Shown one piece after another: positions 1 through 36,464 of a stretch of DNA of 64,000 bases. The notes below the pieces were generated by a model, which ran no database searches, was not told the origin of the DNA, and saw nothing but the letters and a program-made list of their open reading frames with translations. Every line of letters starts with the position of its first letter. Within the stretch, counting starts at the first letter, position 1. The position numbers were made by a program, and so were the translations under genes. The stretch comes from Mesotaenium endlicherianum. Taxonomy: Eukaryota. The stretch is from contig WELA01003606.1 of the NCBI GenBank assembly GCA_009602735.1, positions 80,770 to 144,769 on the forward strand, given 5' to 3'.

Positions 1-16
1 TGGTCAGGAGAAGTTA

Positions 17-1318: not shown

Positions 1319-1353
1319 TAGCTTTCAGCAGAAAAGGCACGGACGCCTCAGCT

Positions 1354-1365
1354 GAAAGGGAGGGG
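1354..1365 (+). other. Polypurine tract of F1 copy 1
   Basis: GAAAGGGAGGGG directly before TG of repeat B; identical at 27791-27802. Confidence 0.85.
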
Positions 1366-1669
1366 TGTAAGAGGAATTAAGACAAGGCAAGTATTTTTAA
1401 AATTTTCTGCTAAGTCTTAGGATAAGCAGATGGTGAGAGCTGGGTGAAGGATAACATTGCTCTGAGTGTTGGTCATGGTTGCATGGTGCAAGTTCAGGAG
1501 CCCAGGGATGGGTCAACCTTAGTAAGGCTTGTCTCCGACACACGTTCAAAGGTCGATCGACCATGTTTGCCCACACGTGAGGAGGGCCACCGACACATCG
1601 ACGAGGTCGAAGGCACACGTGCTGGAAGGCTACGCACGTGCCGAGGGATCGACACTGTTAGGCACGACA
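1366..1669 (+). repeat. F1 repeat B (B1, ~304 bp)
   Basis: TGTAAGAGGAATT...TTAGGCACGACA; other copies at 2923-3226, 17040-17343, 27803-28104 and (minus) 28223-28526. Confidence 0.95.
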
Positions 1670-1671
1670 AC

Positions 1672-2922
1672 TGTCGCGACTACTATTTGTTTGACGGTGC
1701 CGCACGCGTAGCGCAAGCTACGGCCACCCAGGTACGGAAAGTCAACGTTGACTCACCGACCACTTGACTGATTACATCGCAGTCAGCGGTTATGTCGACG
1801 TCAAGACCACTGGCAAGGGGTCAATGTGAATGTGTCCCACACCCAGGGATGGGGGAGGTTTTGACAGCATAAACAGCCGCGAGGCTAGAAGCTGGGGATC
1901 AGTGATAAGCCGCCCAGCAGGTACCAAGTCAGGTACTGTGTGACTGGCAGATTAAGCCAGGTCATGGCCGCAATGCCCAGATAGGTTACGGCCTCCCGAT
2001 TGGGAATCTTGAGCAAGTGGCATTTGCTTGTACACGCCGCTCAGGAGTTCTTAGCCATGAGCCAATTAGGCGTGACTGCCAGCTGAGAAGCTAAGCAGCC
2101 ACGCGCGACAATCACGAGGTGTGCATGCATGCCGAGTGACTACGAGTTTGAGTTGAACATGGCTAGGCAGAAGCGACATGCAGCTAAGCTTTGTGACTAA
2201 GCACGGCATTCTCGAAAGATGACGCTGTGTGGTGCCTGCGAATGGCACAAATCTTGCCTGAGACATGTCATTCACTCTCACACACTTTTGCCAAGAAGAA
2301 GGAGCAGAAGGAGCAGAAGGAAGAAGAAGGAGGGCGCAAAGAAGAAGAAGGAGTTCCCAAGGCCATTGAAGAGCCGAGGCCCCACGCTTCTGCCAACGCT
2401 GAAGATTCTTCTCAGTGTATCATAGATAAGTTAGGATTGTAGGAGTGCCCAAGAGGGAATCTCACTGTTGAAAGTAGGAGAATTGCAGAATAGAATCTGC
2501 TAGGAGAGTAGCACAGATTCGGCCGAACGTCACAAGTGTGGGTGAAGCAGCCTTAAAATGGTGAGTTGTGTGTTAGTTTCCAAGTTCTCAGAAGTCGCAT
2601 TCGCATCTCAAAGAGAGAGAGTAGTATTGGCAGATAAAGCTCTCAGTGAAGAACTGAGTGAGCCTAGCCACGCAGTGAAGAGCTGTTAAGGCGCGGAGTT
2701 AAGTGAAGAGCTTGACCCAGGCCAGCATAGACGTGTGGTTTCAGAGTTTTGTAAGCTGTGACTTGCGAAAGTTAAGCGAAAGCCTGAAGGGCGATTTCTC
2801 TGAACCTGACGTTGTATGTCAAGCTGCTTAGAGTGTAATTTCTGCAATCTACAATTTGCTCGCTTGTGAACCCAAGAACCTTAAGGCATAAAGCCTATGT
2901 GGAAGTAAGAGACTTCCGTCCT
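1672..2922 (+). repeat. F1 repeat A (A2, ~1.25 kb)
   Basis: TGTCGCGACTACTAT...GACTTCCGTCCT; other copies at 15813-17039, 17494-18739 and (minus, interrupted) 28527-36464. Confidence 0.95.
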
Positions 2923-3226
2923 TGTAAGAGGAATTAAGGCAAGGCAAGTATTTTTAAAAAATTTCGCTAATTCTTAGGATAAGCAGATGGTGAGAGCTGG
3001 GTGAAGGAGAACATTGCTCTGAGTGTTGGTCATGGTTGTATGGTGCAAGTTCAGGAGCCCAGGGATGGGTCAACCTTGGTAAGGCTTGTCTCCAACACAC
3101 GTGCGAAGGTCGACCGACCATGTTTGCCCACACGTGAGGAGGGCCACCGACACATCGACCAGGTCGAAGGCACACGTGGTGGAAGGCTACGCACGTGCCA
3201 AGGGACCAACACTGTTAGGCACGACA
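2923..3226 (+). repeat. F1 repeat B (B2)
   Basis: Second B copy joined directly to the end of A (…CCGTCCT|TGTAAGAGG…). Confidence 0.95.
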
Positions 3227-4221: not shown

Positions 4222-4342
4222 GTCTGCCTGCCTGCCTGCCTGCCTACCTTCCTGCTTGTTTGTCTGCGTACCTGCCTGGCTGCACACCGGTCTGCCTATC
4301 TGCCTGCCTGCCTGCCTGCTTGTCTGCGTGCCTATCTGCCTT
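4222..4342 (+). repeat. Degenerate (CCTG)n microsatellite
   Basis: ctgcctgcctgcctgcctacct... repeated with variants. Confidence 0.8.
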
Positions 4343-15812: not shown

Positions 15813-17343
15813 TGTCGCGACTATTATCCGTTTGACGGTGTCGCACGCGCAGCGCAAGCTACGGCCACCTAGTGCTGAAAGTCAACCTTGACTCACCGAC
15901 CACTTGACAGATTACATCGCAGTCAGCGGTTATGGCGGCGTCAAGACCACTGGCAAGGAGTCAATGTCAGTGTGCCCCACACCCAAGGATGGGGGAGGTT
16001 TTGACAAGACAGTCGCGAGGCTAGGAGCTGGGGATCAGCGATGAGCCGCCCAGCAAGTACCAGGTCAGGTACTGTGTGACTGGCAGATTAAGCCAGGTCA
16101 TGGCTGCAATGCCAAGATAGGTTACGGCCGCCCAGTTGGAAAACTTGAGCAAGTGGCATTTGCTTGCACGCCGCTCAGGAATTCTTAGCCATGAGCCAAT
16201 TAGGCGTGACTGCCAGCTGAGAAGCTAAGCAGCCACGCGCGACAGTCACAAGGTGTGCATGCATGCTGAGTGACTACGAGTTTGAGTTGAGCATGGCTAG
16301 GCAGAGGCGACATGCAGCTAAGTTGTGTGACTAAGCACGGCATTCTCGAAACATGACGCTGTGTGGTGCCTGCGAAAGGCACGAATCTCGCCTGAGACAT
16401 GTCATTCACTCTCACGCACCTTTGCCAAGAGGCAGAAGGAAAGAGAATAAGGGCGCGAAAAAGAAAAAGGAGTTCCCAAGGCCACTGGAGGGCCAAAGCC
16501 CCACGCTTCTGACGACACCGAAGATTCTTCTGTGTATCATAGATAAGTTAGGATTGTAGGAGTTCCCAAGAGGGAATCTCACGGTTGAAGAAGGAGAACT
16601 GCAGAATAGAATTCGCTAGGAGATTAGCACAGAGTCAGCCGAACGCCACAAGTGTGTGTGTGTGAAGCAGCCTTAAAATGGTGAGTTGTGTGTTGATTTC
16701 CAAATTCTCAGAAGTCGCATTCGCATCTCGAAGAGAGAGAGTAGTATTGACAGATAAAGCTCTCAGTGAAGAACTGAGTGAGCCCAGCCTGGCAGTGAAG
16801 AGCTGTTAAGGTGCGGTGTTAAGTGAAGAGCTTGACCCAGGCCAGCATAGACGTAGTTTCAGAGTTTTGTAAGCTGACTTGTGGAAGTTAAGCGAAAGCC
16901 TGAAGGGCGATTTTCTCAAAATCTGACGTTGCATGTCAAGCTGCTTAGAGTGTGATTTCTGCAAACTACAATTTGCTCACCTGTGAATCCAAGAACCTTA
17001 AGGCATAAAGCCTATGTGGAAGTAAGAGGCTTCCGTCCTTGTAAGAGGAATTATGGCAAGGCGAGTATTTTTTAAATTTTCTGCTAAAGTCTTAGGATAA
17101 GCAGATGGTGAGAGCCGGGTGACAAAGAACGTCACCCTGAATGTTGGTCAAGGCTGCATGGTGCAAGTTCAGGAACCCAGGGATGGGTTAACCCTGGTAA
17201 AGCTTGTCACCGACACACGTGCAAAGGTCGATCGACCATGTCTACCACACGTGAGGAGGGCCACCGACACATCAACCAGGCCGAAGGCACACGTGCTGGA
17301 AGGCTACGCACGTGCCGAGGGACCGACACTGTTAGGCACGACA
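15813..17343 (+). mobile_element. F1 solo A-B unit with perfect 4-bp TSD
   Basis: A 15813-17039 plus B 17040-17343; CTAT at 15809-15812 and 17344-17347; termini TGTCG..CGACA. Confidence 0.92.
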
Positions 17344-18862
17344 CTATTCCGCGTCGCGGCCAAGTGATACCATGTGATATGGTGTGAACCAGGCCCAGGA
17401 TTTGACAAAATCCTTGAATTTCGGCAACACCCTGACAGGGAATATATGGATTTCAGCCAACACCCGACTCAAAATGAAGGATTTTAAGAGGCATGTCGCG
17501 ACTACTATCCGTTTGACGGTGCCGCACGCGCAGCGCAAGCTATGGCCACCCAGGTACGGAAAGTCAACGTTGACTCACCGACCACTTGACTGATTTCGTT
17601 GCAGTCAGCGGTTATGTCAGCATCAAGACCACTGGCAAGGGGCCAATGTCAATGTGCCCCACACCCAGGGATGGGGGAGGCTTTGACAGCATAGACAGCC
17701 GTGAGACTAGAAGCTGGGGATCAGTAATGAGTCGCCCAGCAGGTACCAAGCCCAGTACTGTGTGACTGGCAGATTAAGCCAGGTCATGGCCGCAATGCCA
17801 AGATAGATTACGGCCGCCCGACTGGGAACCTTGAGCAAGTGGCATTTGCTTGTACACACCGTGCAAGAGTTCTTAGCCCTGAGCCAATTAGGCGTGACTG
17901 CCAGCTGAGAAGCTAAGCAGCCACGCGCAACAGTCACGAGGTGTGCAGGCATGCTGAGTGACTACGAGTTTGAGTTGAGCATGGCTAGGCAGAAGCGACA
18001 TGCAGCTAAGCTTTGTGACTAAGCACGGCATTCTCGAAGGATGACGCTATGTGGTGCCTGCGAAAGGCATGAACCTTGCCTGAGACATGTCATTCACTCT
18101 AACGCACTTTTGCCGAGAAGCAAAGGAAGCAGAAGGAAGGAGAAGAAGGGCGCGAAGAAGAAGAAGGAGTTTCTTAGGCCATTGGAGGGCCGAGGCCCCA
18201 CGCTTCTGCCGACGCTGAAGATTCTTCTCAGTGTATCGTAGATAAGTTAGGATTGTAGGAGTTCCCAAGAGGGAATCTCACTTTTAAAAGTAGGAGAACT
18301 GCAGAATAGAATCTGCTAGGAGACTAGCACAGATTCGGCCGAACGCCACAAGTGTGTGTGAAGCAGCCTTAAAATGGTGAATTGTGTGTTAGTTTCCAGG
18401 TTCTCAGAAGTCGCATTCGCATCTCGAAGAGAGAGAGTAGTATTGACGGATAAAGCTCTCAGTGAAGAACTGAGTGAGCCCAGCCTGGCAGTGAAGAGCT
18501 GTTAAGGCGCGGAGTTAAGTGAAGAGCTTGACCCAGGCCAGCATAGACGTGTGGTTTCAGAGTTTTGTAAGCTGTGACTTGCGAAAGTTAAGCGAAAGCC
18601 TGAAGGGCGATTTTCTCTGAACCTGACGTTGTATGTCAAGCTGCTTAGACTGTGATTTCTGCAAACCACAATTTGCTCACCTGGGAACTCAAGAACCTTA
18701 AGGCATAAAGCCTATGTGGAAGTAAGAGACTTCCGTCCTACTTCTGAGAACCTCGGTTCTGTGGTTCAAGTGAGTAGAAATTCCCAAGCAAATTGGGGAT
18801 TGAGGCCTGTGAGGGCCGCCGGTGCTCAACCTGGAAGGTGGCCCGGAGAAATTCAACTGTAC

Positions 18863-20560
18863 ATGCGGTTGAGGAGTGGAAGACTCTATGACCTTGTAAA
18901 GTGGAGCCTGCGGAAGGTTCTGATTCAAGCCAGAGTCCACGAGGAAGTGAGACATCTGAGCGCACGGATAACCTGTGGAGTGAGCAACCGTCGGGAGACG
19001 AGTCTCGCCATACTGCCACGAACGGTGTGAATCCGTATCACACGCAAGCCTTTGTACCCAATTTGGGCAGAGAGCACGACGTGTGGGGTAAAGATAGTGA
19101 GTCTTGGTCCCCATTCGAAATGACTGGTGATGATAAGGATGAAAATCCTAAATTCAAGTTGTCTACAAAGTGTTTTAGTGGACGAACCGGGGTAAATAGT
19201 CTCACTTTCGAAGAGTTTGATGAGATCTATTGGGCTAACTTCTTTGAGAAAATCCGACAGGAGTCTTCTTACACTCGATTAGTCGCTTTTATAAGCTTGA
19301 TTCAGTACTTGGACAAGGATGTCTTGTTGCTTAATTGCCAATTCCGGAAGGATGAGAACCTTACCCAGGAATGGGCGTTTGACAAGCAAAAGAAAGCAAG
19401 GGAGAAAGAGGCTGCGAAAGCCCGCCTTACCGCTTTGTTTTCAGGAAGAGCGATACCTGCTGCACCTGTTGAGAGCATAGACTTAGCTGCACTACACAAG
19501 AATTAACAGATGCCATGAGGCAACTCACCGAGGGTCAGCAGCGAGCGGCTACTCGAAATGATGATGTTGGGTCTGTCGCAGAATTGCGTAAAATGTGTGC
19601 AGAATTGTCTGAAAAGATTGCTATTGCTCAGGAACGAGTAACGCGCAGAGCTGCACCTTTTACAGGGCAGCATGGTGATAGTGCCACCACGGAAGCAAGC
19701 CATGCGCAAGCGTTGGCTAGTTGCTGTAGGGATATGGAGGCTGGGGATGACCAGTTAGACTCTGAGCACTGTCTGCGTCGTTTCTTTAAGTTGCTTGAAG
19801 CAAAACTCCCAGAGGATCGCAGTCATAAGGTGCACCGTTATGTGCATTTTGTCCGTCAGAAGAGCGAGACAGTGATGGAGGTCAAATCCAGATTGGTAGA
19901 CCTTGCCAAGAAGGCAGGGATCTATGAGCCTAGGATTGTGGCTGACAAATTCTTATCGTGTTTGGGTAAAGACACAGATCGGGAGGTCAGGCCGCACCTA
20001 TCTGCAAAACGCGGAATCGACTAGAACATTGACGAGGTTTCTGAAATAGCACGCAATGTCGAGGAAGGTAAAGTTTGGTACAAGGACGCGTTCAGGAAGC
20101 TTATGGCTCCTGAGAGAAGGGAGGAATCCTTTCAGCCTAATGCCAATAGCTCTAATTTTCAATTTAAGAGGAAGAGCGGGTCCTTCAATAGGTTTGCTAA
20201 GCACGCCAACACTGCTGAGACAGCAGAGGGCTGTTGGAATTGCAGAAAATCAGGACATCAGAAGAGAGATTGTCCGTACTCGGATGCTAAGCAATTGTCT
20301 TCGAGCAAGGCGCAGGTATGCGCACATTGCAGCAAAAAGGGACACTCAGAAGATGAGTATTGGTCCAAGAATCCAAATCTGAAGCCACCATGGGCTAATG
20401 CTGCCACTAAAGAGGCAGATAAGGGTAAGAAAAAGGAGAAAAATAACTATGGTAACCAAAAGGGTAACCAGAAGTACGATGCTATGAGTGCAAAGATTGC
20501 AGAGTTGAAAGCTCAAATTGTAAGACTAAATGTGCCTAATGTCTATTACGATGCAGATGT
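18863..20560 (+). pseudogene. F1 Gag with two zinc knuckles (frameshifted)
   Basis: MRLRSGR start at 18863; fragments 18901-19506, 19515-20024, 20103-; CWNCRKSGHQKRDC and CAHCSKKGHSEDEY. Confidence 0.8.
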
Positions 20561-20929
20561 GGCCGAAAGGACCGTCTTCAAAGGCGAGAAGCTGACGCCT
20601 GAGAAGGCCGTGGCTGCAACAACTTTGGAGCGTGCAGATCATGACCGTCTGGTTCCAAGGAATACTGAGAAGCTTCCTCAGACCTTTTGGATCACTCTCC
20701 ATGAGAACGAGATTGCGCAGCTACGACAAGCCAAGCCTAAGCCACGCAATACATTTAGTTTTTCGCTGGAGAAGCTGAAGGCTCTGGTGGAACATCGAAT
20801 TCAGCACATTCCTTGTCTTTCACTCGTTGATCTGCGTCTTACGTATCCTTTCACGGTTGAAGAAGCCGGACAGCAGCTGGACATAGCTGAGGAAGGCGCG
20901 AACAGCGCTTCATTGCCTACTAATTTCAG

Positions 20930-21345
20930 CACTGTGAGAGTGCAGAACAAGGATAGAGTTTTGACGTTCAACGACTGGGCCGCTCCCAATATCCTATTGG
21001 ACACTGGCGCACAGCCACTAATCTTGGGAAAGCGAGCTGTGAAAGCTCTGAAATTGACGGCAAGGGACCTGAAAGAAAGTCCTTTTCAATCGAGGACTGC
21101 ATTTGGGCAAATTTCAAAGTCTGGTGGAATCACTCGCAAGCCTGTGAAAATCACAGTAAACTTCGGGAAACCCGAGGAGGCATCACTGCTCATAGAATGC
21201 ACGGTGACAAAAGGCTGAGAACTATGATGTTCTCTTGGGGACAGAAGCCCTGATTCCCCTGGGTATGGTCATTGACCTGCGGAAGCAGAGGGTGACTTAC
21301 CAGTCGACAGATCGGCAGCCGACAGGAGAAATTCCTGTAAAATGG
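20930..21345 (+). pseudogene. F1 aspartic protease
   Basis: ILLDTGAQ active site; YDVLLG motif follows in another frame at ~21223. Confidence 0.85.
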
Positions 21346-21346
21346 T

Positions 21347-22624
21347 TTGCTCGGGAGAGGCGAACTACGGATTGCTAGACGTTGTGTGAATGACCGGTAT
21401 CCAGACCATTATGACCTCATCATGCAACGCGAAGAGGAGGGCTACACCAGCGTCAACATGCCGACTCCCTTGGTTTGGCAACCTCGGATTATGGAGCAAC
21501 TGGAAGCTGTGAGTAACAGGGACCGTGGCCCGCAAGAGCTGCTGCCAGTTCCCTACCCAATTAAGTCTGCTACCAATTTGATGCCTGGAGTAGACCCGCT
21601 GCCGCAAGGCATTGTGAGGATGGAAGATCCTTTTTGCAGGAGAGGAGTAGTAGTGCTGGAATTGTTCGCCGGACTTGGTTCTGGAACCATCTCACTGATT
21701 CAGCGAGGTATCCAGGTATCCAAAGTGCTGTATGTGGACAATGATGAGAGTGCTTTCACAGCATTTAAGGAGGTCATGAGTCAGATGCGGCAAATGCATC
21801 ATTTCAAGGCGTTGGTGCCTATTGACTCTAGTTTGGTGCGTCTTGTTGGAGGAAACGTTCTCGATGTGAAGTCTGAGGACCTGTATGGTTACAGGATTGA
21901 CTGGATCTTTACGGGATTCCCTTGTCAACCTTTCTCGCAAGCTGGGAACAGGAGGGGATTCAATCACCCGCGAGCACAACACTGGGAATGGATGGTGAAA
22001 AACATCAGTATGCTGCGGGAACGCCAGCATCTCTACCCACCAGTGTTTGTGATTGAGAATGTACATCCAGGGATGGATTACAACCAGATGAAGCGAGAAG
22101 ATCCATGGCTGGTCTTCAACTCCACCTTGGGTCATCATGTATTGATTAACGACGCTAGGCACGGAGGACTCTCACACTGGGCCTGACTATTCTGGATGAA
22201 CGGCATGTCCATTGAAATCGTGAGGGAGATGGAGGAGATTACGCGGCGCACACCAACGGCAGTATCTGTGGGAGAAGCACTGATGGTGGAAACCAAGCCA
22301 GTAATCAGGAGGGATTCCTACCCACAATACGTCGTCAACGAGCCAGGCCGGCCAAGGGTGGTGCTGCCCACCTTCACGGCATACCTAGGATCACGCGCAT
22401 TCGTGAATGGAGGACTGAGAATGGTCAAGAATGCGCACGACAAAGAAGCTCAGTGGAGAGAGCCGACAGCTGAAGAGAAGGGAAGGTGCCTGGGGGTACC
22501 CAACTCCATTGCACAAGAAATTGTTGCGATGGTGGGACAAGACGACGCTGGGAAGATATTCGGCAATATGATTGGGCATTACTCCATGACGTGGTTGGTG
22601 GAGACGATTATGACTTGGCAGTAG
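21347..22624 (+). pseudogene. Retrotransposon-borne C5 cytosine DNA methyltransferase domain (one in-frame TGA at 22184)
   Basis: Motif I VLELFAGLG (~21650), IV TGFPCQPFSQAG (~21911), VI VIENV (~22049), VIII-like HWA*LFWMN, IX-like REPTAEEKGRCLG, X IFGN (~22556), all in one frame. Confidence 0.92.
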
Positions 22625-24741
22625 ATGACGTTCTCTGACAAGCCTATGCCCAGGCCGAGACCAGTAACGATTGGAGTCCATGTGGTGCCAACCTCTGATC
22701 AGAGAGCTATCAAAGAAGCGCATCGGCGACAAGAAGAACATAGTGTTGAAAGGGACGCAGCTGAGGCTGACCAAGATGAAACACTCAGAGAAACCAGAGT
22801 GGTGGAGCTGACCAGGTGTCAAGACCTATTGGCGCGAATTGACAATCGGATGGCGGCTCTACACGACCCTCTGGAAAGAGAGCTGCGAAGGCTGCGAGAA
22901 GACGTAGCCATGAAAGACCACGCAACTGGTGCAGCAAACCCTTTGGTGAGCGCTGCAGCAAGCAAACCACAGGAGGTTCCATTATCTGCGGAACGTGCCA
23001 GCCAAGTATTTGTGAGGATGCCGAAATGGGAGGACAATACCACTTCTGAGTTACGGAACATGGCCCCAGATCAGGTCTACGGAAGCCCATCCCCAGACGC
23101 GGTAACGTCAAGATATGAAGAACGCCAGTGTAACATTGGCGAATGGGCCGAAGAATGCAGTCAGAAGTCAGGAAATTCTGGAGGGTCTGGAAAGACCATT
23201 TGCCTGGAGGTAATTTTTGAAGAACGCAGGAAGGAGACGGTCGAGAGATTGCCCGCTACACCTGTTCTGATGAACCCAGAGCCAGAGGCCAAGGGGCAAC
23301 CACAAGACACAATTGGCAGCACAGCTGAGTCGATCGCCAGGCAAATCATGGAACAATTGCTGGAAGCAGACGTCCCTTGACTCAAGGAAGAGAAAGTGGC
23401 GAAAGCAGCTCTCGCTCTACAGTCAGCCATCATCAACATGGCGAGGCTCAACACAAGAGGGGATGAAGAATGGCCGCCTCTTGGAGCAGAGAAGCCAGAG
23501 GAGGGAGAGGATGCAGAGATGCAAGGCCTTTCAGAGTTAGAGTTGCCATCACTCAACAATGAAGGGGACGCCAGGGAAGAAATTCCACGTTTTCCTACGC
23601 CAGAGTTGGATCTGCTTGACTCACAGGAGCTGAGGACAGACAACCGGGTAGCTGACCACTTGATGGAACCAAGCCCGGCAGACCTTTATGAAGAACTAAG
23701 GTCACCAATATCCAGTACCCCTGCTGCCAGTTTTTCAGTGGTAGAGCCTAAGTCAACAGTACGACCGCCGCAACGGCAGGAGGTGACTGCCTGCACTGCT
23801 AAAGTGGAGACAGCCCAAGGTAAGCCCGAGAGTCGTGCAAACAGACCAAGGAAGGTGGCCCGTGAGGGTAACGCATCTTTTAGAAGGATGCTAAAGCGAT
23901 ATTTCAAGCATAAGGGGAAGGCTCAGAGAGAGGGCGTCCCGCGAGGAACTACAGCCCCACCTTCTTTGCCTTTGCGGTATATTTTGCAGAGAGAGGGAGA
24001 GGACGGCTTGATTCGCAGGGCAATGGCATTGGGCATCAGTATGTCGCCAGGCAATAACACGCCCTTGTTGCAACTATCAAACCTTAGGATGTAGAGGCTG
24101 GAGGCACCCGCTCCCACGACACCTGCAATCCCAGAATGGGAACTGATGGATCTGAGAAACAACATCAGACGCTTAAACGCAGCAGACGATGCTTTCCTCG
24201 CACAACTAGCGGCACCTCAAAGGCCGCAAAAGTTGACGCAGGCATGGACGGTCACACCACCTGCAAGGGAGGAGTATGGCACGACCGTCGCCCGCATGGC
24301 TATTATTGAGCAAGAGTGGGGATGGGTAATCAGCCCTAGGACAGATCCTGCAGGTTGGCCAATGGCAAACCAACCTCGGCCACGTGAAGAAGGAGGAACA
24401 GGGACCAGTTGGACTGCAATCGACGAGGAAATGTTTCTGAGGCAACCCATCCGGAGGCGCCTGACGTACACCTCACCGCAGGAGAGGCGACGTGTCATTG
24501 GGAAAGGTAAAAAGCCTAGGAAACAGGCTGCAGAGCCTTTGGCAACGGAGGAGCAAGCTCAAAGCCCGCTACCCCACCTCCTAAGAATCAGGCAAAAAGC
24601 CCTGAGAGCCAGAATCAGGCAGAAAAGCCTGAGGGCCAGGATGAGGGCGGAAAGCCCCCATCTGCACCCAAGGAATAGCAACTACTGGATGCCTTTGTTG
24701 GGGAGAAGCAACCTGAAACTGAGACTTTTGCCATTGGGAAA

Positions 24742-26140
24742 ATGGTCTCAGCCCAGCAGAAAGCACAAGTAGAAAGGTTGCTGAAGAAACACCGCAAGGT
24801 GTTTGCTTTTACTAAAGAGGAGATTGGTAGAACCACTCCCGGTGTGTGTGAAATCACACTAACTACTGATAACCCAGTCAGGCTTGGGCCGCATAAGCTC
24901 AGTCAGACAGAGTGGGACTGTGTGGAGAAAACTTGCAAAGAGCTGCATAAGCTTCGCATGATTGAAAAATCTACCTCAGTGCATGGGGCTCCCACAGTAG
25001 TAGTCGCTAAAAAGGACGAGGCCGGCAATTACACTGCCACTCACATGTGTGGAGATTACAGGCGACTGAATCTCTACACGGAGCCAGACAGCTACGTGAT
25101 GCCTACACCGGAGCGGATCTTTGCGATTGCCACCACCGGAAAGGTGTTCAGCATCATCGATCTGCGCCAAGGTTTCAACCAGATCCCTGTGAAAACAGAA
25201 GATCGAGGTAAGACCGCTTTGTGGGCTCAAAGGGAACTTTGGCAATGGACAGTAATGCCATGTGGGCTGAAAAATGCCCCAGCCATATTTCAGAGGACTA
25301 TGGATAAAGTGCTGGAGGGGCTGGATTCTGCTAAACCATACATTGACGATGTGGTAGTATTCAGCAAGTCCACAGAGGAGCACCTCGAGCACTTGGAACA
25401 AGTGTTCCAGCGCCTGGAGAAATTCCAGATGAAGCTGCATCCTGGAAAGTGCAGATTCTTTGAGGCACACGTGCCTTACCTAGGACATGAGATGGGGAAC
25501 AATGCTATGTCCCCTCAGGCTATGAAGACTGAGGCCATTTACAAGATACCTGCACCTGCGAATGTGTCCAAGCTGAAAGCTCTGTTGGGGCTAAGCGGAT
25601 ACTATCGTAAGTTTATGGAGGATTATAGCAGAATTGCTAAACCCCTGACAAAACTCCTGAAAAAGGATGTGCCTTTTGTGTGGACAGAAGCTCAGGAGAA
25701 AGCTATGAACGAGCTTAAGGAGCGGCTGATAACAGCCCAGTCTTGCGAACGCCTGACTATTCCAAGCCGTTCAATCTGCACACTGACTGGAGTCGTGTGG
25801 GAATTGGCGCAGTACTCACTCAGGCCGCAAGCCCTAGAGAGGAGCATGTCATTGCCTATGCCTCACGCTCTAACAATTGAGCGGAGAGCAACTACTTGTC
25901 CTACGAAGGAGAGCTGCTGGCAGTGCTTTGGGCTGTCACACACTTGAGAGAATATCTGTGGGGAAGACCCTTCACGCTGATCACGGATCACTCACCATTA
26001 CTATGGCTGATGAAGAATGGAGACCTCACTGGTAAGTTGGCTCGCTGGGCTCTTAAGCTGCAAGAGTACCAAATGACGGTGGTGCACAGAGCAGGAGTGC
26101 TCAACAATGACGCCGATGGACTCAGCAGGAACCCAGGCCC
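24742..26140 (+). pseudogene. F1 reverse transcriptase and RNase H (frameshifted)
   Basis: MCGDYRRLN, IDLRQGFNQI, MPCGLKNAPAIFQ, YIDD; RNase H LHTDWS..GIGAVL, YEGELLAVLWAV, TDHSPL. Confidence 0.95.
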
Positions 26141-26439
26141 ATCTTTAGACGACAGAACAGGAGCTCAAGAGGGCAAAGACCCGAGCAGCCCAGCAGAGTT
26201 GGTGACCTGCCTAACCAAAATGGCTGGAATGGTAGCATCAGGTGAAGCTGAGCCTCTACTTCTGTTCAGTCCAGAGATCAGAAAAGATCAAGCTACTATG
26301 CACTGGCTGAAGACGGGAATTCACTTGGAAGGACTATCAGTGAAGGAGAAGGACCAGGTAAGCTATCGAGCTAAAAAGTTTTGCTGGAAACGCAACAACC
26401 TCTTTGAAATTGAAGGTACTGGTCAGGAGAAGTTAGTGC

Positions 26440-27755
26440 CAGACCCCATCAGGAGACCAGCTCTTGTGCAGGAAATGCACGAGAACACTGGACACTATGG
26501 TGTCAAGAAGACGTATAGTCTTTTAGAACTGTCTTACTGGTGGAGGGGCGTGAAGCGGCAGTGTGAAGCCGCTGATGCCGCTAAAGCCGCTGATCAAGAC
26601 TTGCCAAAGATGCGATCGCGTCAAGGCTGGTTTTGCTCAGCAACATCCACACTTGCAACCTTTGCCGATTGTGGGCCTAGGCTACCGCTGGAGCTGCGAT
26701 CTCGCAGGTGAGCTACCGCTGTCTAAGCGAGGTAACAAGTATATCATGGTCATGATTGAGCATTTCTCTAAGTGGATAGAGGTCGTGCCTCTGACTGCTA
26801 AGGAGAGTCTAGGGACCGCAGAAGCGCTCCTCAATGGTGTGATTGTGCGTCATGGAGCTCCAACTGAAGTGCTGACAGACCAAGGGTCTGAGTTCCAAGG
26901 GTCCTTTCAGAAACTCTTGGATAGATGCTTCATCGATCATCGCACTACGTCTAGAGATCATCCGCAAGCACATGTTCTGGCAGAAAGGATGGTGCAAACC
27001 GTTAAGTCTGCTTTGCGCAAGTTTTGCCTTGAGCATGACAAGCGTGACTGGAATCTGGCCCTGCCATGGCTGGTTATGGGTTACAGATTTAGCAAGCAGG
27101 CTGCCTTGGCGAATTACTCGCCATATTAGATACTGTTTGGCAGAAGTCCAGTAGTGCCCAGCAGCACCAAGCTCGATATTGAACAGGTGAAAGACCTGGA
27201 CAGCCCTGAGGAACTGCTAAAGGTGATGGTACGCCGTAAGGCGTTATTTGAGCGCATGATGCCGGCTGCATTGGACAATCTGAAAATCGCACAGAAAAGA
27301 GATACGCAGCGTTACGCCAGAAGGCAGACGGAAGTTACCGCCTGCAGATGACGCAGATTCAAGAAGGAGACTTTGTCTACCGCAAGCGCCAGACCAAGAT
27401 CACCATAGACACCAGTTCAGGTGCAGTGATCTTACGTGTGAAACATGCGTTTGACAATGGTGTGTTAGAACTGGAAGGTTCTGATGGTAAAACCATGAGA
27501 GACCACGTGCAGAATTGCTCGCTATGCCATTTGCCGAATATTGATCCTACGATTAGGGTTCTGGCCGAGGAATTGGTGCCCGCCACGGCTTGTGCCAGCT
27601 GCAAAGTGCTGGATGATCAGGAAGCAATGGCAACTTGCGATAAGTCTGGTGCTCGTTGGCACACTTTCTGCATTGGCGAAGAAGAGATTATCGCAGGACA
27701 ATGGGAATGTCATGATTGCAATCCTAAACCCCCTAGCCACGGGGCTCAAAAATAA
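26440..27755 (+). pseudogene. F1 copy 2 integrase plus PHD finger (~27591-27719)
   Basis: Same DDE motifs as copy 1; CASC..CDKS-x4-H-x2-C..WECHDC. Confidence 0.9.
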
Positions 27756-30623
27756 TAGCTTTCAGCAGAAAAGGCAGGGACGCCTCAGCTGAAAGGGAGG
27801 GGTGTAAGAGGAATTAAGGCAAGGCAAGTATTTTTGAACTTCCTGCTAAGACTTAAGATAAGCAGATGGTGAGGGCTGAGTAAAGTAAACAAAGCCCTGA
27901 GAGTTGGTCATAGTTGCATGGTGCAAGTTCAGGAGCCCAGGGATGGGTTAACCCTGGTAAGGCTTGTCACCGCCACACGTGCAAAGGTCGATCGACCATG
28001 TTTGCCCGCACGTGAGGAGGGCCACCGACACATCAACCAGGTCGAAGGCACACGTGCTGAAAGGCCACGCACGTGCCGAGGGATTGACACTGTTAGGCAC
28101 GACACGCATCCTCGTGCCGGGCAAAAACATTCAAAGTTTACCATTACACTGATATAAATTAGGTACAATTGTACGCATTGCAGAGGTCGGCAAAGGTCTT
28201 ACATAGACTTGTTTGATAACATTGTCGTGCCTAGCAGTGTCGGTCCCTCGGCACGTGCGTAGCCTTCCACCACGTGTGCCTTCGACCTGGTCGATGTGTC
28301 GGTGGCCCTCCTCACGTGTGGGCAAACATGGTCAATTGACCTTTGCACGTGTGTCGGAGACAAGCCTTACCAAGGTTGACCCATCCCTGGGCTCCTGAAC
28401 TTGCACCATGCAACCATGACCAACACTCAGAGCAACGTTCTCCTTCACCCAGCTCTCACCATCTGCTTATCCTAAGACTTAGCAGAAAATTTTAGAAATA
28501 CTTGCCTTGCCTTAATTCCTCTTACAAGGACGGAAGTCTCTTACTTCTACATAGGCTTTATGCCTTAAGGTTCTTGGGTTCACAAGCGAGCAAATTGTAG
28601 TTTGCAGAATTCACACTCTAAGCAGCTTGACATACAACGTCGGATTTAGAGAAAATTGCCCTTCAGGCTTTCGCTTAACTTTCACAAAGTCACAGCCTAC
28701 AAAACTCTGAAACTACACGTCTATGCTGGCCTGGATCAAGCTCTTCACTTAACACCGCGCCTTAACAGCTCTTTACTGCGAGGCTAGGCTCACTCAGTTC
28801 TTCACTGAGAGCTTTATCTGCCAATACTACTCTCTCTCTTCGAGATGCGAATACGACTTCTGAACTTCAAAACCAACACACAACTCACCATTTTGAGGCT
28901 GCTTCACCCACACTTGTGGCGTTCGGCCGAATCTGTGTTAATCTCCTAGCAGATTCTATTCTGCAGTTCTCCTACTTTCAACAGTGAGATTCCCTCTTGG
29001 GAACTCCTACAATCCTAACTTATCTATGATACACTGAGAAGAATCTTCAGCGTTGGCAGAAGCGTGGGGCCTCGGCTCTCCAATGACCTTGGCAACTCCT
29101 TCTTCTTCTCGCGCCCTTCTTCTTTTTCCTTCTTCTCCTTCTGCTCCTACTGCTTCTTGGCAAAAGTGCGTGGGAGTGAGTGACATGTCTCAGGCAAGAT
29201 TCGTGCCTTCCGCAGGCACCACACAGCGTCATCTTTCGAGAATGCCGTGCTTAGTCACAAAGCTTAGCTGCATGTCGCTTCTGCCTAGCCATCCTCAACC
29301 CAAACTCGTAGTCACTCGGCATGGATGCACACCTCGTGATTGTCGCGCGTGTGTAGTGAAACAGATAGATAAAGTACTTAGTAAAACAGAATACTTTATC
29401 TATTCAAGACAAGGATCTTTGAACACAAGTGGTAGCTTCTTGAAAGAGAGATGGCTTCTTGAAAGTTAATATATTTCTGGATTTTGGGAAGTACAAGAGT
29501 GATTCTCGAATGTCTTTCTATGTTCTAGCTCTTGTTTATATACTTGCTACATAAGTAATTTCTAGGAAGGTGTATGTTGATGTGTTGGCACCCAACACAT
29601 CCCAAAACTTGCCACCTCTTTCTAGAATAATGTACACATGTCCTTTTGACCTAAAAATGGCACATTTGACTTTTGCCACATGGAGTTCTTCTAGGTCTTT
29701 CCTCTAACTTCGAAAATGCCTTGGAAGGTTCAAAGGACATGAACCAAGTTACTAGAGTACCTATTCACACTTGACTCCACACAATACTACTCCAAATATA
29801 TTTGAAAACATTAAAATATATGCAAACTAATATATAATAACTCAAATCACTACATCACCCCCCCGATAGAAAAAGCGACGTCTCGGCGCGTCAAGTCAGG
29901 TCTTACACATGTGGAGCAAACTAGTCAACAGTTTCAAGTCAGATGCCACACATGTGAAGAGGACTAGTCAAAGGCGCCAAGTCAGGTGCTACACATGTAA
30001 GGTAGACTAGGCAAGGTCGTAGGTGGTGTGACCTTATTGGCTAGCCTACTCCTTAATGATAAAGAAAATTGTACAAGTTGGCCCAGAATCTGCCACGAAC
30101 TCAAAAATTCATAGCGGCCACAGAACTGCTCCAAATCTGAAAATTCGAGTGCCAGACGGACCGCGTCGGAGAACTCTACCGGGTCACCAAATTTGAGAGC
30201 ATTCTCATTTCTGGAGTGTCGTTGAGAGCTGAGAGAGTAGGCACTCCTCCAAATCTGTGCAGAAACTTCTGAAAATCATAAGTCCTTCTATACTTCTCCA
30301 AATTCTGCAAACTAAGTCTCAAACTGGGCGCTGTAAGATGTTCTACCAGAGTCTTGAGTTTCAGAGCATTCCAAGTTCAGGGGAGGGCACAATGTCAGAA
30401 GGCATATTCTGCCCTAACAATGCCAGCAGCCTGACCCCCTTCTACTTAGAGCATCATATCTCTCTCACCAGTGCTCCAAATTGAGCAAACTTGGACTCTA
30501 AATGACCGGCTACTCATGGACTACAGCCAGGTAAATTTTCAGAATTTATTATGCAGAGACCTATTACCAGTAGCAGTTTTAGTTTTCTGTCCAGAAACTG
30601 CGAGAAGAGAAGAGTGTCTAATG

Positions 30624-33600
30624 TCAATTTTTCCTCTTTCTTGTTCTTGCAGGCTGCCTCCAAGGGGTCTTCTGCTGCTTCTTGATGGTGGCAGGCTGCC
30701 TCCCTGAAGTCTTTGGGCTTCTAGTAGAGAGACTTGGGGCTGGTCCAAGATGGGGGCTGGCGGCATGGAAGCGCTTCAACTTTCTCTGAACTTTGTCAAG
30801 GTAGTGCGCCGCCACCCAACTATTCTTCGAATCTGGATATCCTTTCCTCTTCATCAAGTATTGCTGTTGTCTCCTGAAATTTCTCATAGCCACTATGTCT
30901 TCCACTTCGTACTCCAAATGATCATCCACTATTGTTGGGGCTAGTGGGGTTGTCACACGTCCTGGGAACTTGTTGTCGGGTTGCACATACGGCTTGAATA
31001 GGGAAGCGTGGAATACGGGGTCGATGTGCATAGTCTGGGGAAGTTCTAGCTTGAAAGCAACGGGGTTGACTTGCTGGATAATCTTGAAGGGTCCCAAATA
31101 CTTGGGAGAGAACTTGCTGCCGGCAGGCCTGTTGTTCAGGGAAATGTTCTTGGATGATAGTAACACGTTGTCACCCACTCTGTACGTAATTTCTCTTCTG
31201 GATCTATTCGCCACTCTTGCTTGAGCATCTTGCGCGTGTTGTAGAGCTTTCTTCGCTGCTGTAAGGGCTGCTTCTAATGTCTCCATAAAATTGGTGGCTG
31301 CAGGTACTTCATCAAGGCCAGCCGTGAAGCTCAGTGGCGTGGTCGGATGGAATCCATAGTTGAGGAAGAATGGGGACTCTTAGGTAGAGGCTTGCGTTGT
31401 GTTGTTGTAGGCAAACTCCAAGGGGGTCAAGTACATGTCCCAATCTTGCTCCAGAGTAGACACGTAGGCCTTTAGAGAGGTCTTTAGAGTACAATTCATA
31501 CGCTCGGTTTGCCCATCTGATTGCGGGTGGTAGGCAGTGGACATATCCAGCGATGTACCCAAGTTCTTGAAGAGATTTTTCCAGAAATGGCTTGTGAATC
31601 TTGGGTCTCTATCTGACACAATTCTTGATGGTAGTCCATGGAGTCGGAAGATGTTGTCAAAGATGAGTCTTGCAAGTTGTGGTGCTGTAGCCTTAGTCGT
31701 CGTGGGAATAAAATGAGCCATCTTGGTAAGTCTGTCCACCGCCGTGAGTATTGCATTATGGCCTCGAGGTGTCACGGGCAAGTCCACGATAAGGTCCATT
31801 GAGATGTCCGTCCATTGTCTTTCGGGGATTGGTAGTGGTTGGAGGAGTCCTCCCGCCTTTTGCGATGATGGCTTGATTCTTTGGCATGTGTCACAGCTCC
31901 TGCAGTACTCCTTGACTTGCTTAGACATGCCTGGCCAACAATAAGTCCTAGCTAGAACGCCCGTGGTCCTTAGGATTCCAAAGTGTCCTCCAAGAGGGTT
32001 GTCGTGTGCTTCTCGTAGAAGCAAGAGCCGGAGGTCTAAGTCATTAGGAACACATCTCTGGCCCGTATCTTGCCTCACCCAATAATTGCCTTCTTGCTTC
32101 TTGCATGGGTCCAAGGCTGCTTCTCCGTTCTTGTAGTAAGGGTCTCTTTCATAGGCGGCTGAAAATCGAGCTTCCAGATCTGTCTTCAGGGATACCATCA
32201 CTGCATTTAATTGCAGTCTTGAGAGGGGGTCAGCCGGGTTTGTCTTGCCGGGCTGGTACTGAATCGTGATGTTGTATTGTTGCAAGTATCCGCTCCATCT
32301 TGCTTGTCTCCTTGAGAGATACGGCTGCGTTTGGAGGTGCTTTAACGCCTCGTGGTCCGTGGTGACCAGTACTTTGCGTCCTTCAACGTAGCAGCGCCAA
32401 ACCTTCAAGGCATGTACAATCGCCAATGCCTCTCGCTCCGTGGTTGTATAATTTTGCTCGGCTGGATTTAGCTTCCTTGACTCGTAGGCGATGGGCTGCA
32501 GTCCCTTGCCTTGGTCTTGAAGCAGGATTGCTCCTATTGCATAGGAAGATGCATCGGTGATGACGTGGAAGGGCCAATCTGGGTTTGGACTTGGGAGTGT
32601 GAGCACCGGGGATGTGGTCAATCTTCGCTTTAACTCTTGAAATGCCTCTTCCTCTTTCTCGGTCCATGTATATAGCCTGTCCTTCTTGAGTAGATCTGTC
32701 AGGGGGGCTGCTATGTGCGAGAAGCCTTGGATGAATTTTCTGTACCAATTGGCAAATCCCAAGAATGACTGGAGTTCTTTCTTGGTCGTGGGGGTTGGCC
32801 ATTCCTCCACCACCGTGGTCTTCTTGGGGTCTATCTTGATGCCATCAGCAGTCACGTGGAGACCTAGGAACTCCACTTCTTGTTTGGCAAACTCGCATTT
32901 TGACTCCTTCGCAAACAGCTTGTTTTGCTTCAATACTTCAAGGACTTCTTTCAAGTGTCTCGCATGCTCTTCAAGGGTCTTGCTGTAGATAAGGATGTCA
33001 TCGATGAATACCACCACAAATCTGTCCAACATGGGCTGAAATATGGTGTTCATCATAGTCATGAAAGTTGCTGGCGCGTTGGTGAGTCCAAATGGCAGGA
33101 CCATGAACTCAAAATGTCCATATCTTGTCCTGAATGCCGTCTTCTCTATGTCCGGTTCTGCGATGCGAATCTGGTGGTAGCCGCTCCGTAAGTCAATCTT
33201 CGTGAAGTACTTGGCTCCAACCAGCCGGTCCATGAGCTCATCCATGCGCGGCAGCGGGTATCGATTCTTGATGGTGATCTTGTTGAGGGCGCGATAGTCC
33301 ACACACATCCTCAAGGTACCATCTTTCTTCTTGACAAATAGCACCGGGGCTCCAAATGGCGACTTGCTAGGTCGAATGAAGCCATGCTCCAGTAGCTCCT
33401 TGATTTGCTTCTTGACTTCGTCTAGCTCCGTGTATGACATTTTGAACGTAGGCCGAGAGATGGGCTTGCTTCCGGGCTCCAACTCTATCTTGTGGTCTAC
33501 GAATCTTTTGGGGGGTAGGCCCTTGGGCAATTCCGGGGAGAACACTTCTTTGTAGTCCTCTAAGACTTCTTGTATCTCCTTGGGAACGGGGCTGCCTTCT

Positions 33601-34289
33601 TGACTCTCGATGTCTTTCTTGATGTCTTTTGGCGTGATCAAGGCCAAAAGAAGCTCGTGTCCCTTCCTCACAAGTCTCTTGAGTTGGAGGGCGGACAATA
33701 GTATCTCGTGTGCCGGCTTCTGGATGTCTTGGGTCTGGATATTCTGGATTGCGCGCAAAATACAGATTCTTGAAGTGATGTCATTCTTGATCTTGATAGT
33801 ACCGGTCCTCCAATCAACTTGGGGGTTGTGCTTGGTCAACCAAGGCGTCCCTAGGATGACGTCGTACTTGCCCAATTGCATGGGGGAGAACACTACTCTA
33901 TCCTTGAAGGACTTGATAGAGAGTGCCAAGGGGTACGTCTTCTTGGAAGGGGTAGTATAGGAGAATCCATCGGGCATCATAATCTCCTCGTCGTGGTCAA
34001 GAGTTCGCATAGTAATACCGTGCTTGGTGGCAAAATCTGCAGCAATGAAGTTGCCTTGAGCTCCGCTATCCACCAAGATGTGGACCTTCTCTCCTCCAAG
34101 GTAACCTCTCAAACTCATTGGGGCTGGAACGTCGTCTTCAACGGGGGTCTCCACCTCACTTGGCGTGTTGCCTTCTCGTGAAGTGGGTCTTGGGGTGGTA
34201 GGCTCCTGGCCTACCGGCGCTGTCCGTTTTTTGACAACTTTTTGGGGCATGAAAGTGCACGATGGCCCTTTTCCTTGCAATAAAAGCAT
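30624..34289 (-). pseudogene. F2 Pol (PR-RT-RH-IN-chromodomain), premature TAA at 31380-31382
   Basis: LVDSGA, FIDD, TDASSY, HHCC and DDE, YEVEDIV..YLMKRKGY..SW; TAA replaces the CAA seen in copy 2. Confidence 0.93.
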
Positions 34290-35491
34290 AGTCCAGCCGT
34301 CATGAGAGCTTCTTTTTCAGCCGGGGAGAGTCTTGCTTTCACTCCTTGCTGGTTTCTTGCATCATAAGTGTCATTGGAGGGTCTTCCACTCTTCCGGGCA
34401 GCCGCGGGGTCCCTTTTAATAACTCCGATTTCCATGGGTGTGGGTCCAGATTCGGATGTGGAAGGGGCTGCGTACACCCGCGTCGTCGGTACCCGTGAAG
34501 ATGAAGGCACGGAGTGCTTGAAATCCAAGGTATCCACCTTTTGGGCCACTTCAATGATCTTTGAGAAGTCCGTCAAGTCGCGTAACTCCACTTCCTTTGC
34601 CACCTTGGGTTTGAGGCCAAAGATGTAGCGGTCAATCTTCTCCTCGAGAGACATGTTGGGGATCTCAAGAGTGAGGGCGTGAAATCTGGATGTATACTCT
34701 TGAACGGACGTCGTTTGCTTGAGATGGTGGAGCTTTCCTCGGGCAATCTTCTCCGCATTGATGGGCATGAATTGCTTCTTGAGGGCCTCACGAAAATCTG
34801 CCCATCTTGCATATGATGGTGGGGGCTCTTGGCCGAGCATGGGGTGCGCCATAGCTTGATATATAGCCGCTTGATAGTTACGCCACCATGATGTTGCTGC
34901 TCCTCTAAGTAAGGTAACGGCAAAGGGAACGTAGTCCTCCTCGGGTACTTCAAGGAATGCGAGGTACGTCTCCACTTGGTAGAGCCATAAATTCAGGTTG
35001 GCACCTTTCCCGGGGTTGAAAGTGTCGGGTTTGCCGGGCTTGATGAGTTTCCTTGCTCTCGTTGGCTCTTGTGGAGGCGCTTGAGCCGGGGCTGGATTTT
35101 GAGCATTGCTCGCAATAGGGGCAACCATGGCAGCCATAGCTTCTCTTGACGCTTGCACGGTTGCTTCATAGGTGGCCAAGCCCACTTGGTTGTGGACGGT
35201 CATTAGGAAGGCTGCCCACTCATTTGCGGGAACTCCTTGTGGTGGGGTCAACTTTGCTATAGCGGCTGCCACGGGATTTGACGGTGCTCCTCCTTGTGGT
35301 GCTTCTTGTTGTTGGAGATTTCCTTGAGTAGGCTCTCCCATCGACGCTGGAGGAGGGTGTGCTCCTCCTTGTGGTGCTTCTTGTTGTTGCAGATTTTCTT
35401 GAGTGGGCTCTCCCATCGGCGCTGGAGGAGGGTGTCTTGGAGAGGAAGGGCTTCCTTCGAAAGCTTGCTGTTGGTCTTGAGGATCGGCCAT
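34211..35491 (-). CDS. F2 Gag (426 aa, CCHC zinc knuckle)
   Basis: Retrotransposon gag signature ([11 protein letters not shown]), [22 protein letters not shown]; same protein as 56339-57619. Confidence 0.92.
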
Positions 35492-36464
35492 CTTCTTGTG
35501 CTACCAAAGTGCCTAGCTCCGATACCACTGTAGTGAAACAGATAGATAAAGTACTTAGTAAAACAGAATACTTTATCTATTCAAGACAAGGATCTTTGAA
35601 CACAAGTGGTAGCTTCTTGAAAGAGAGATGGCTTCTTGAAAGTTAATATATTTCTGGATTTTGGCAAGTACAAGAGTGATTCTGGAATGTCTTTCTATGT
35701 TCTAGCTCTTGTTTATATACTTGCTACATAAGTAATTTCTAGGAAGGTGTATGTTGATGTGTTGGCACCCAACACATCCCAAAACTTGCCACCTCTTTCT
35801 AGAATAATGTACACATGTCCTTTTGACCTAAAAATGGCACATCTGACTTTTGCCACATGGAGTTCTTCTAGGTCTTTCCTCTAACTTCGAGAATGCCTTG
35901 GAAGGTTCAAAGGACATGAACCAAGTTACTAGAGTACCTATTCACACTTGACTCCACACAATACTACTCCAAATATATTTGAAAACATTAAAATATGTGC
36001 GAACTAATACATAATAACTCAAATCACTACAGCGTGGCTGCTTAGCTTCTCAGCTGGCAGTCACGCCTAATTGGCTCATGGCTAAGAACTCCTGAGCAGG
36101 GTGTACAAACAAATGCCACTTGCTCAAGATTCCCAACCGGGCGGCCGTAACCTATCTTGGCATTGCGGCCATGACCTGGCTTAACCTGCCAGTCACACAG
36201 TACCTGACTTGGTACCTGCTGGGCGGCTCATCACTGATCCCCAGCTTCTAGCCTCGCGGCTGTCTATGCTGTCAAAACCTCCCCCATCCCTGGGTGTGGA
36301 GCACATTGACATTGACCCGTTGCCAGCGGTCTTGACGTCGACATAACCGCTGACTGCGAGATAATCAGTCAAGTGGTCGGTGAGTCAACGTTGACTTTCC
36401 GTACCTGGGTAGCCGTAGCTTGCGCTGCGCGTGCGGCACCGTCAAACGGATAGTAGTCGCGACA

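Follow-up and report, generated by a model that had tools for sequence, protein, structure and literature searches.

A broken DNMT3-like methyltransferase domain in an abundant Ty3/gypsy retrotransposon family of Mesotaenium endlicherianum, and a probable circular route of insertion behind its split repeats

Background

Within an abundant family of retrotransposons of Mesotaenium endlicherianum, here called F1, one copy displays the motifs of a cytosine-5 DNA methyltransferase (DNMT) between protease and reverse transcriptase (RT). We asked whether this domain is a shared part of the family, what kind of enzyme it represents, and what it could do in an element whose repeats are split and whose integrase ends in a PHD-like domain. 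The material is a stretch of 64,000 nucleotides (assembly GCA_009602735.1, contig WELA01003606.1, positions 80,770 to 144,769, forward strand), referred to as the window; all coordinates are window positions.

Cargo of this class is known, as the sequence-only reading of the locus had pointed out. KnitGypsy-Dnmt3 of Klebsormidium nitens resembles F1 in having Gypsy domains, an intronless Dnmt3-like domain in Pol and DIRS-type split repeats (PMC5890265, repeats and domains in the legend of Fig. 4c), and SymbioDIRS-Dnmt3 of Symbiodinium, also described there, resembles it in carrying a Dnmt3 in Pol and repeats of the form A-coding-B-A-B; split direct repeats as such are defined in PMC4157794. 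In the parts of PMC5890265 available to us, KnitGypsy-Dnmt3 is reported to be under purifying selection and SymbioDIRS-Dnmt3 to methylate CG in yeast; KnitGypsy-Dnmt3 left yeast DNA unmethylated, which the authors deem inconclusive, and methylation of the cDNA is advanced as a hypothesis. This 2018 report is restated in PMC12344493, at least in the portion accessible to us, and the available text of bioRxiv 10.64898/2026.05.21.726589 names the streptophyte elements Gypsy-DNMT3.

The methyltransferase domain

The central copy of F1 occupies 17494-28104 and contains the following coding features.

18892..21340, + strand: gag with a CCHC knuckle, and aspartic protease (DTG); zf-CCHC E 1.2e-4, gag-asp_proteas E 8.6e-4
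21620..22621, + strand: C5 cytosine methyltransferase domain, DNMT3-like by family profile and predicted model, broken; PF00145, motifs
22625..24700, + strand: DNMT-RT linker of about 700 codons, with two stops; present in DNA runs
24679..26070, + strand: RT (YIDD at 25339-25350) and RNase H, frameshifted; RVT_1 E 1.4e-29, RT_RNaseH E 4.7e-20
26448..27752, + strand: DDE integrase (H2C2 and rve) with a C-terminal PHD-like domain, broken; Pfam

The open reading frame at 21341-22183 matches PF00145 with an E-value of 9.5e-17 (61.8 bits, against a cut-off of 22), which bears out the C5 methyltransferase recognized from the letters. The domain proper extends from about 21620 to 22621, with 21347-21619 as spacer, and its motifs lie in the expected order within one frame, again as first read: I (FAGLG, 21665-21679), IV (PCQ, 21920-21928), VI (ENV, 22055-22063), VIII (about 22148-22201, damaged in this copy), a IX-like motif (about 22460-22500) and X (GN, 22562-22567). 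The location between protease and RT also holds, the RT by its RVT_1 match and the protease by Pfam matches (about 20988-21152) that lie under the cut-off; tblastn with the relatives P0056, P0072 and P0206 matches the gag-protease region, in which frameshifts and a stop at 20022 interrupt the reading frame. The further claim of a single frame running on to the RT stands only with stops read through, since stops and flanking frameshifts leave the polyprotein closed.

The central copy retains the catalytic PCQ and ENV, but an intact frame with a full set of catalytic residues is not found in it. An in-frame stop at 22184-22186 and a substitution at 22178 both fall in motif VIII and hit its two most conserved positions (22178 and 22184, identical in 74/74 and 73/74 aligned relatives). 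A further stop (22622-22624), which may reflect decay or a real boundary of the reading frame, directly follows the domain and is itself followed at once by an ATG; the linker has stops at 23378 and 24092, and frameshifts lie at the protease/DNMT boundary (about 21210-21380) and upstream of the RT. This copy is unable to make the enzyme. Among the best-supported differences listed, other copies depart from it by small indels at 19493, 21210, 21338, 24559 and 27325 and at the stop at 24092, so the breaks look private to the central copy. Across 74 aligned relatives the catalytic C, E-N, motif VIII and P-T are conserved in 73-74 sequences at about 27% identity, which implies long selection for catalysis.

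Relationship to DNMT3 is suggested by the family profile and by the predicted fold. Compared with PDB chains, a profile of 32 family members ranked DNMT3A (4e-30) and DNMT3B first, followed at a distance by DRM (5e-19), M.HhaI (1.5e-14) and a DNMT2-type chain (2e-8); none of its 58 PDB matches was a DNMT1 chain, and a 24-member profile built without the window sequence gave an identical ranking. A model predicted with X at the stop (pLDDT 88.1, pTM 0.89) has DNMT3A, DNMT3B and DNMT3C at Foldseek ranks 1-11, with a narrow lead in TM-score (0.69 for DNMT3A, 0.62 for Dnmt2, 0.61 for HhaI). The motif order is unpermuted, and profile ranking and Foldseek alike put DNMT3 ahead of DRM, DNMT2 and bacterial enzymes, so that the domain is DNMT3-like as judged by profile and modelled fold. 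A look-up of one relative in the ESM Atlas returned PF00145 clusters only.

A single-sequence search of the PDB had M.HaeIII as its sole match, and in a DNMT tree of 70 sequences, built without host DNMT3, the window sequence sits on a long branch beside stand-alone methyltransferases. Both features would fit uptake by F1 of a bacterial-type C5 methyltransferase, independently of KnitGypsy-Dnmt3, as would the stretch GFPCQPFSQAG, which we take to resemble restriction-modification enzymes. Yet the window domain matches the 24-member retroelement profile over residues 2-333 with 196 bits, against 20-85 bits for 30 low-scoring short proteins, and it shares family-specific stretches with the other carriers, occupies the same position as in Klebsormidium and comes from an element whose RT falls on the same side of a well-supported branch as those of the other carriers. 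We therefore regard separate bacterial capture as very unlikely.

The domain in other copies

The window contains one DNMT copy, and a broken one, as would be expected had the domain entered the central copy as a one-off insertion, or were it a passive hitch-hiker; the sequence-only reading had itself named absence from other copies as the observation that would overturn its claim. That absence is not what was found. The depth of contigs summed in run X1, which is not a copy number, is 24,490-30,193 over the DNMT (four bins), comparable to gag (23,480-36,254), with 29,149-45,479 over the RT. In run X6, which carries another organism label, 30/30 bins were covered, with pieces over 21383-22216 and 22221-22631, and distant relatives have the same architecture. 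A one-off insertion is largely refuted and scarcely tenable. Among the pieces listed, no contig from another F1 copy joined the DNMT to either of its neighbours, protease and RT. The linker at 22625-24700 is likewise present in other F1 copies, as judged by depth.

Classification of F1

The order gag-protease-DNMT-linker-RT-RNase H-integrase-PHD is common to F1 and the streptophyte relatives named below. The linker matches no Pfam family and has no BLAST match among the collected proteins; its counterpart measures 12-138 residues in 10 of 11 relatives measured, the eleventh being truncated. In the central copy the integrase is supported by Integrase_H2C2 (E 8.4e-9) and rve (E 6.7e-13), and the PHD-like domain scores E 0.047 there and 5.6e-5 in a second copy at the left end of the window (23.5 bits, against a Pfam cut-off of 24).

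F1 has the gag-PR-RT-RH-INT order, DDE integrase, polypurine tract (PPT), TG...CA ends and 4-bp duplication of a Ty3/gypsy element, the target-site duplication being perfect in one of three complete-ended pieces, matching at 3/4 bases in the second and absent from the third. Instead of two identical LTRs around the coding region, its repeats read A-coding-B-A-B. Membership of DIRS, PAT or Ngaro was considered and rejected, an rve integrase and a protease being present and no tyrosine recombinase being found among 26 ORFs scanned; chromovirus membership was rejected as well, the element having a PHD-like domain in place of a chromodomain and an RT apart from that of the window's chromovirus. 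Together with the intronless Dnmt3-like domain in a gypsy Pol and the DIRS-type split repeats, these features make it very probable that the window holds a broken DNMT3-like domain in the gag-pol of an abundant Ty3/gypsy family of the Gypsy-DNMT3 kind.

Split repeats and priming sites

Self-BLAST delimits two repeats, A (about 1250 bp) and B (about 304 bp), which together with the sites around them are placed as follows.

1..3226, + strand: 3' end of a second F1 copy (left copy), with integrase-PHD and a PPT at 1354-1365; self-BLAST
1366-1669, 1670-1671, 1672-2922 and 2923-3226, + strand: B1, 2-bp spacer, A2 and B2 of the left copy
1660..1681, no strand assigned: internal B|A junction CA-AC-TG with inverted arms, predicted integrase attachment site
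15813..17343, + strand: solo A-B unit with a perfect 4-bp target-site duplication (CTAT)
17494..18739, + strand: repeat A1, left end of the central copy, starting TGTCGCG; self-BLAST, junctions
18398..18411, + strand: predicted self-primer and transcript start, perfect complement of 18740-18753
18740..18753, + strand: predicted self-priming primer-binding site (PBS) adjoining A1, a 14-nt perfect match
27791..27802, + strand: PPT adjoining repeat B, seen before B in both coding copies
27803..28104, + strand: repeat B, right end of the central copy, ending CACGACA; self-BLAST, junctions
28223..36464, - strand: second A-B unit, split by a young chromovirus (29352-36031); self-BLAST

The central copy thus reads A-coding-B, between the flanks GGCA and CGCA (3/4 matching), and the left copy is 93% identical to it over 1.7 kb. 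No matching target-site duplication was found at the reversed A-B unit. The sequence-only reading had singled out the co-occurrence of split repeats with a PHD-integrase; both are real, the PHD just under its cut-off, but the co-occurrence is not new, the repeats being described in the Fig. 4c legend cited above and a PHD being common in relatives.

A PBS of the tRNA type is absent behind A1, in contrast to the window's chromovirus. The 14 nucleotides that follow A1 are instead the complement of a segment within A, and a match of at least 13 nt occurred in 0 of 5000 shuffles; in the other A copies it has one mismatch in one and two in another, and it is missing in a fourth. The transcript would start at this segment (18398-18411), with TTAAAA at 18369-18374, 29 nt upstream. 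No polypurine tract precedes A2 or B2. The arms of the internal junction at 1660-1681 match at 8/10 positions, and its sequences are the same as the outer ends of the element. That the outer ends match an internal CA-NN-TG junction, with the PBS after A and the PPT at B, points to a B-A LTR, of which A1 would be the 3' part. From a PBS and PPT so placed, standard LTR reverse transcription yields (B-A)-coding-(B-A). In all three window copies that have the A|B joint, the base preceding the PBS is joined to the first base after the polypurine tract. As read from the sequence, the primer site, polypurine tract, end joint and predicted attachment site of F1 can thus be placed to the nucleotide. 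Contigs from other runs contain PPT-B joints (X5, X9), A-B joints (X9, X1) and, in X19, a B-A joint with a short side of 37 bases. One X9 contig of 674 bases across the A|B joint (window 1412-1545 plus 2431-2922) has a depth of 5503, against about 130 on the coding side, and is perhaps an amplicon or an abundant short derivative.

The route of insertion

These positions suggest the following cycle. The RNA would start inside A and prime itself at the site behind A1, and plus-strand synthesis from the PPT before B would give a linear cDNA, (B-A)-coding-(B-A). Its two ends would join, the A|B joint being exactly the PBS end plus the PPT end, and the DDE integrase would then cut the internal CA-NN-TG at B|A in the circle, inserting A-coding-B-A-B with a 4-bp duplication. 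The form A-coding-B could derive from a one-LTR circle or from later recombination between B copies, and solo A-B from recombination between A copies or from a double cut. On this sequence evidence we consider the circular route probable.

The layout A1-B1-A2-B2 is that of PAT and Ngaro (PMC4157794, as far as its text is available to us), and the repeats could have arisen without a ligated circle, in the manner of DIRS and PAT, if B2 were present in the RNA and extra template switches produced the ends A and B directly. The precise A|B joints in 3/3 window copies would suit such a route, and the circle model further predicts a mirror product, A-B-A-coding-B, which is not seen among the four F1 pieces of the window. 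On the other side stand the canonical PPT at B1, the lack of one before A2 and the PBS at A1, which define B-A ends and not A...B ends, and the 26 ORFs scanned include no tyrosine recombinase; the 4-bp duplication points to a DDE integrase. A route without a circle is accordingly rather unlikely in our view.

Rearrangement and neighbouring repeats

To the right, the left F1 copy and the reversed A-B unit are flanked by the two halves of a single site in another repeat, with a 4-bp overlap (3227-3366, 36465-37071 and 42395-43148). An inversion of 25-34 kb, produced when A repeats recombined, is suggested by this arrangement and would account for the reversed unit having no duplication; alternatively, elements inserted more than once at a preferred site. 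B1 has 12 mismatches to the reversed B and 18 to the B2 of its own copy, a modest difference.

The window also holds two young chromovirus copies, at 29352-36031 (-) and 55796-62477 (+), which are 98.8% identical, with LTRs 98.6-98.8% identical; they encode gag, protease, RT, RH, integrase and a chromodomain, have a TGG-type PBS and show one stop at the integrase end, and truncated pieces lie at 48635-52135. A third, decayed gypsy family (gag, RT, integrase, SH3) occupies 37100-42300 (+), its RT about 70% identical to that of the chromovirus. At 44876-46560, a GC-rich 210-bp tandem repeat in three copies lies beside a minus-strand ORF with a CCHC knuckle.

Relatives of F1

Word-indexed protein searches with the DNMT returned just 3 and 2 weak methyltransferases; an exhaustive search returned 261 proteins at E up to 0.001, the best 150 of which were listed. 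Six of its top matches (P0007-P0010, P0025, P0051), which align through short, repeated stretches only, were set aside. Among the matches listed, 42 of 154 collected proteins combine the DNMT with gypsy similarity (gag, protease, RT or integrase). The DNMT lies upstream of the RT or behind gag/protease in 10 of them and behind the RT or before the integrase in 32. Pfam supports both placements, and many relatives have a PHD after the integrase; several upstream-type proteins (P0056, P0170, P0175) are without a PHD call.

The order of F1 recurs in Klebsormidium nitens GAQ93235.1 (knuckle-protease-DNMT), and upstream placement is found also in several Closterium proteins and in Marchantia polymorpha Mp_2g26090 and MARPO_0091s0058, so that the cargo is both of the Klebsormidium kind and family-wide. 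In an RT search (best 120 of 380), the two Marchantia proteins show DNMT-RT-RH and Calypogeia fissa RT-RH-INT; among the matches listed, the nearest RTs with a named source belong to liverworts and streptophyte algae, which makes a streptophyte host likely. The examined catalytic motifs of MARPO_0091s0058 are intact. For Mesostigma viride the DNMT only was seen, and for Coleochaete scutata RT-RH-INT-PHD.

Trees were built with FastTree and have SH-like supports. The RT tree comprises 95 of 160 RTs (all those with DNMT, PHD or a name, and a subset of the rest; no K. nitens RT), and in it a branch with support 0.995 separates F1 and all DNMT carriers from other gypsy RTs. F1 is a long basal branch whose placement within the clade has a support of 0.39. 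Elements with a downstream DNMT form a subclade (0.896) and are grouped in the DNMT tree too (0.976), a pattern suggesting that the domain was captured once, long ago, and changed its position once thereafter. It is conceivable, if doubtful at present, that Gypsy-DNMT3 is a single ancient clade reaching from Mesostigma and Klebsormidium to liverworts, whose cDNA is inserted as a circle through a cut within the LTR, methylated by its DNMT3 and targeted by its PHD; its integration would then resemble that of a circle-forming insertion sequence.

Of 79 metagenome loci, two (L001, L002) have gypsy domains, the locus scans mostly showing unrelated methyltransferases, and 80 viral loci gave weak matches (best E 3e-13). 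L001 (1400-7480 of a metagenome contig) has an open RT-DNMT-integrase frame of 2027 codons, of the downstream type; neither split repeats nor a PPT, nor a junction resembling an attachment site, appeared in the 3.7 kb downstream. A G-patch separates the DNMT from the integrase in P0031 and P0159. Pfam makes no DNMT call in P0301 or P0303, though their cluster representative, P0089, matches the domain, and P0187, within the clade, has about 350 residues from RNase H to integrase and no DNMT match.

The role of the methyltransferase

The position of the DNMT within gag-pol would place the enzyme in the particle alongside the cDNA, and in intact copies it was likely packaged with the reverse transcriptase. 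It may there methylate cytosines on the cDNA or the circle, in CG context by analogy with DNMT3A and SymbioDIRS-Dnmt3, and the element would enter the genome already marked, while the PHD would read chromatin at the target. We rate methylation of cDNA or circle as possible, at slightly less than even odds. Taken as a whole, the reading that joins the identity of F1 with an enzyme packaged with the RT, methylation of the element's own cDNA and circularization of that cDNA before insertion has in our estimate a probability of roughly 0.6.

The mark could instead be set at or after insertion, on the new insertion and its flanks and not on free cDNA, in chromatin chosen by the PHD-integrase. PHD reader and DNMT writer do occur together in many relatives, and 32 of the 42 DNMT-plus-gypsy proteins have the DNMT behind the RT or directly before the integrase; against this, the DNMT sits behind the protease and far from the integrase in F1, Klebsormidium, Closterium and Marchantia, and the PHD call is missing in the upstream-type proteins named above. 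We consider action at insertion unlikely.

CpG observed/expected is 0.62 in F1, as compared with 0.57 and 0.58 in two DNMT-free gypsy elements of the window and 0.52 at 3300-15800; CpG depletion was thus rejected as a sign of self-methylation, F1 being no lower than gypsy elements without a DNMT. Transitions between F1 copies are more frequent at CG sites (0.10-0.19) than at CHH sites (0.03-0.12), a rise that host methylation would explain. The lack of extra CpG loss in F1, and the inactivity of KnitGypsy-Dnmt3 in yeast in the available text of PMC5890265, would agree with the domain being kept not to methylate DNA but to methylate RNA, flip bases or bind DNA, for instance in holding the B|A junction or the circle. 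The near-invariant catalytic motifs among relatives argue for catalysis, and the family matches DNMT3 more strongly (E 4e-30) than it does DNMT2, the tRNA enzyme (2e-8), so that such a role seems improbable to us.

Transcripts are scarce. In two poly(A) runs with the same species label, the 9-kb coding region draws 5 reads out of 6.9 million and 13 out of 12.0 million, and in the portions read (6% and 12% of the runs) none falls on the DNMT, which would be consistent, weakly, with silencing.

Comparison with known systems

F1 is a divergent further member of the published Gypsy-DNMT3 kind, and both its cargo and its split repeats are already in print. Its DNMT is 28% identical to the K. nitens protein by BLAST, and it differs from KnitGypsy-Dnmt3 in the linker of about 700 codons before the RT and in the PHD after the integrase, a term with no occurrence in the main text of PMC5890265; in the parts of that paper available to us we found no discussion of PBS, PPT or junction anatomy. 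SymbioDIRS-Dnmt3 has a tyrosine recombinase and a DIRS-type RT in the same source, whereas F1 combines a gypsy RT with a DDE integrase and shows a 4-bp duplication.

Among other Ty3/gypsy elements, Tf1/Sushi and Tcn1 share with F1 a PBS complementary to their own sequence and not to a tRNA; they are chromoviruses with ordinary LTRs, unlike F1 with its PHD, DNMT and permuted repeats (PMC6317226, a survey whose available text has no match to 'PHD' or 'methyltransferase'). Foamy-virus integrase provides a precedent for a retroviral-type enzyme that cuts an internal CA/TG palindrome in a circle (PMC1180852, as available to us), there at the end-to-end 2-LTR junction, whereas the predicted site of F1 lies inside the LTR and gives a permuted product. 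EpiLTRs and DAM-LTRs, described in the accessible text of bioRxiv 10.64898/2026.05.21.726589, are likewise gypsy elements with a DNA methyltransferase and a chromatin reader, but with a DNMT sister to DNMT4, an adenine methylase and a chromodomain, and their authors set them apart from Gypsy-DNMT3. In the literature accessible to the search, which had subscription journals and Repbase outside its range, we found no account of circle integration, a PHD or land-plant members for Gypsy-DNMT3.

Implications

What the window adds is a likely origin of the split repeats, as a permuted LTR inserted from a circle, and the reach of the family into liverworts. Retroviral-type integrases are held to act on the ends of linear cDNA, and circle integration becomes testable in an abundant family that, once inserted, has its ends within the LTR. 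Such integration would also explain the repeat layout noted in 2018, an explanation that we did not find in the available parts of PMC5890265. Elements of this build may escape ordinary LTR finders and inflate the DNMT3 gene counts of their hosts. Finally, the relatives in Marchantia polymorpha bring the question of what a retrotransposon does with a DNMT into a model land plant.
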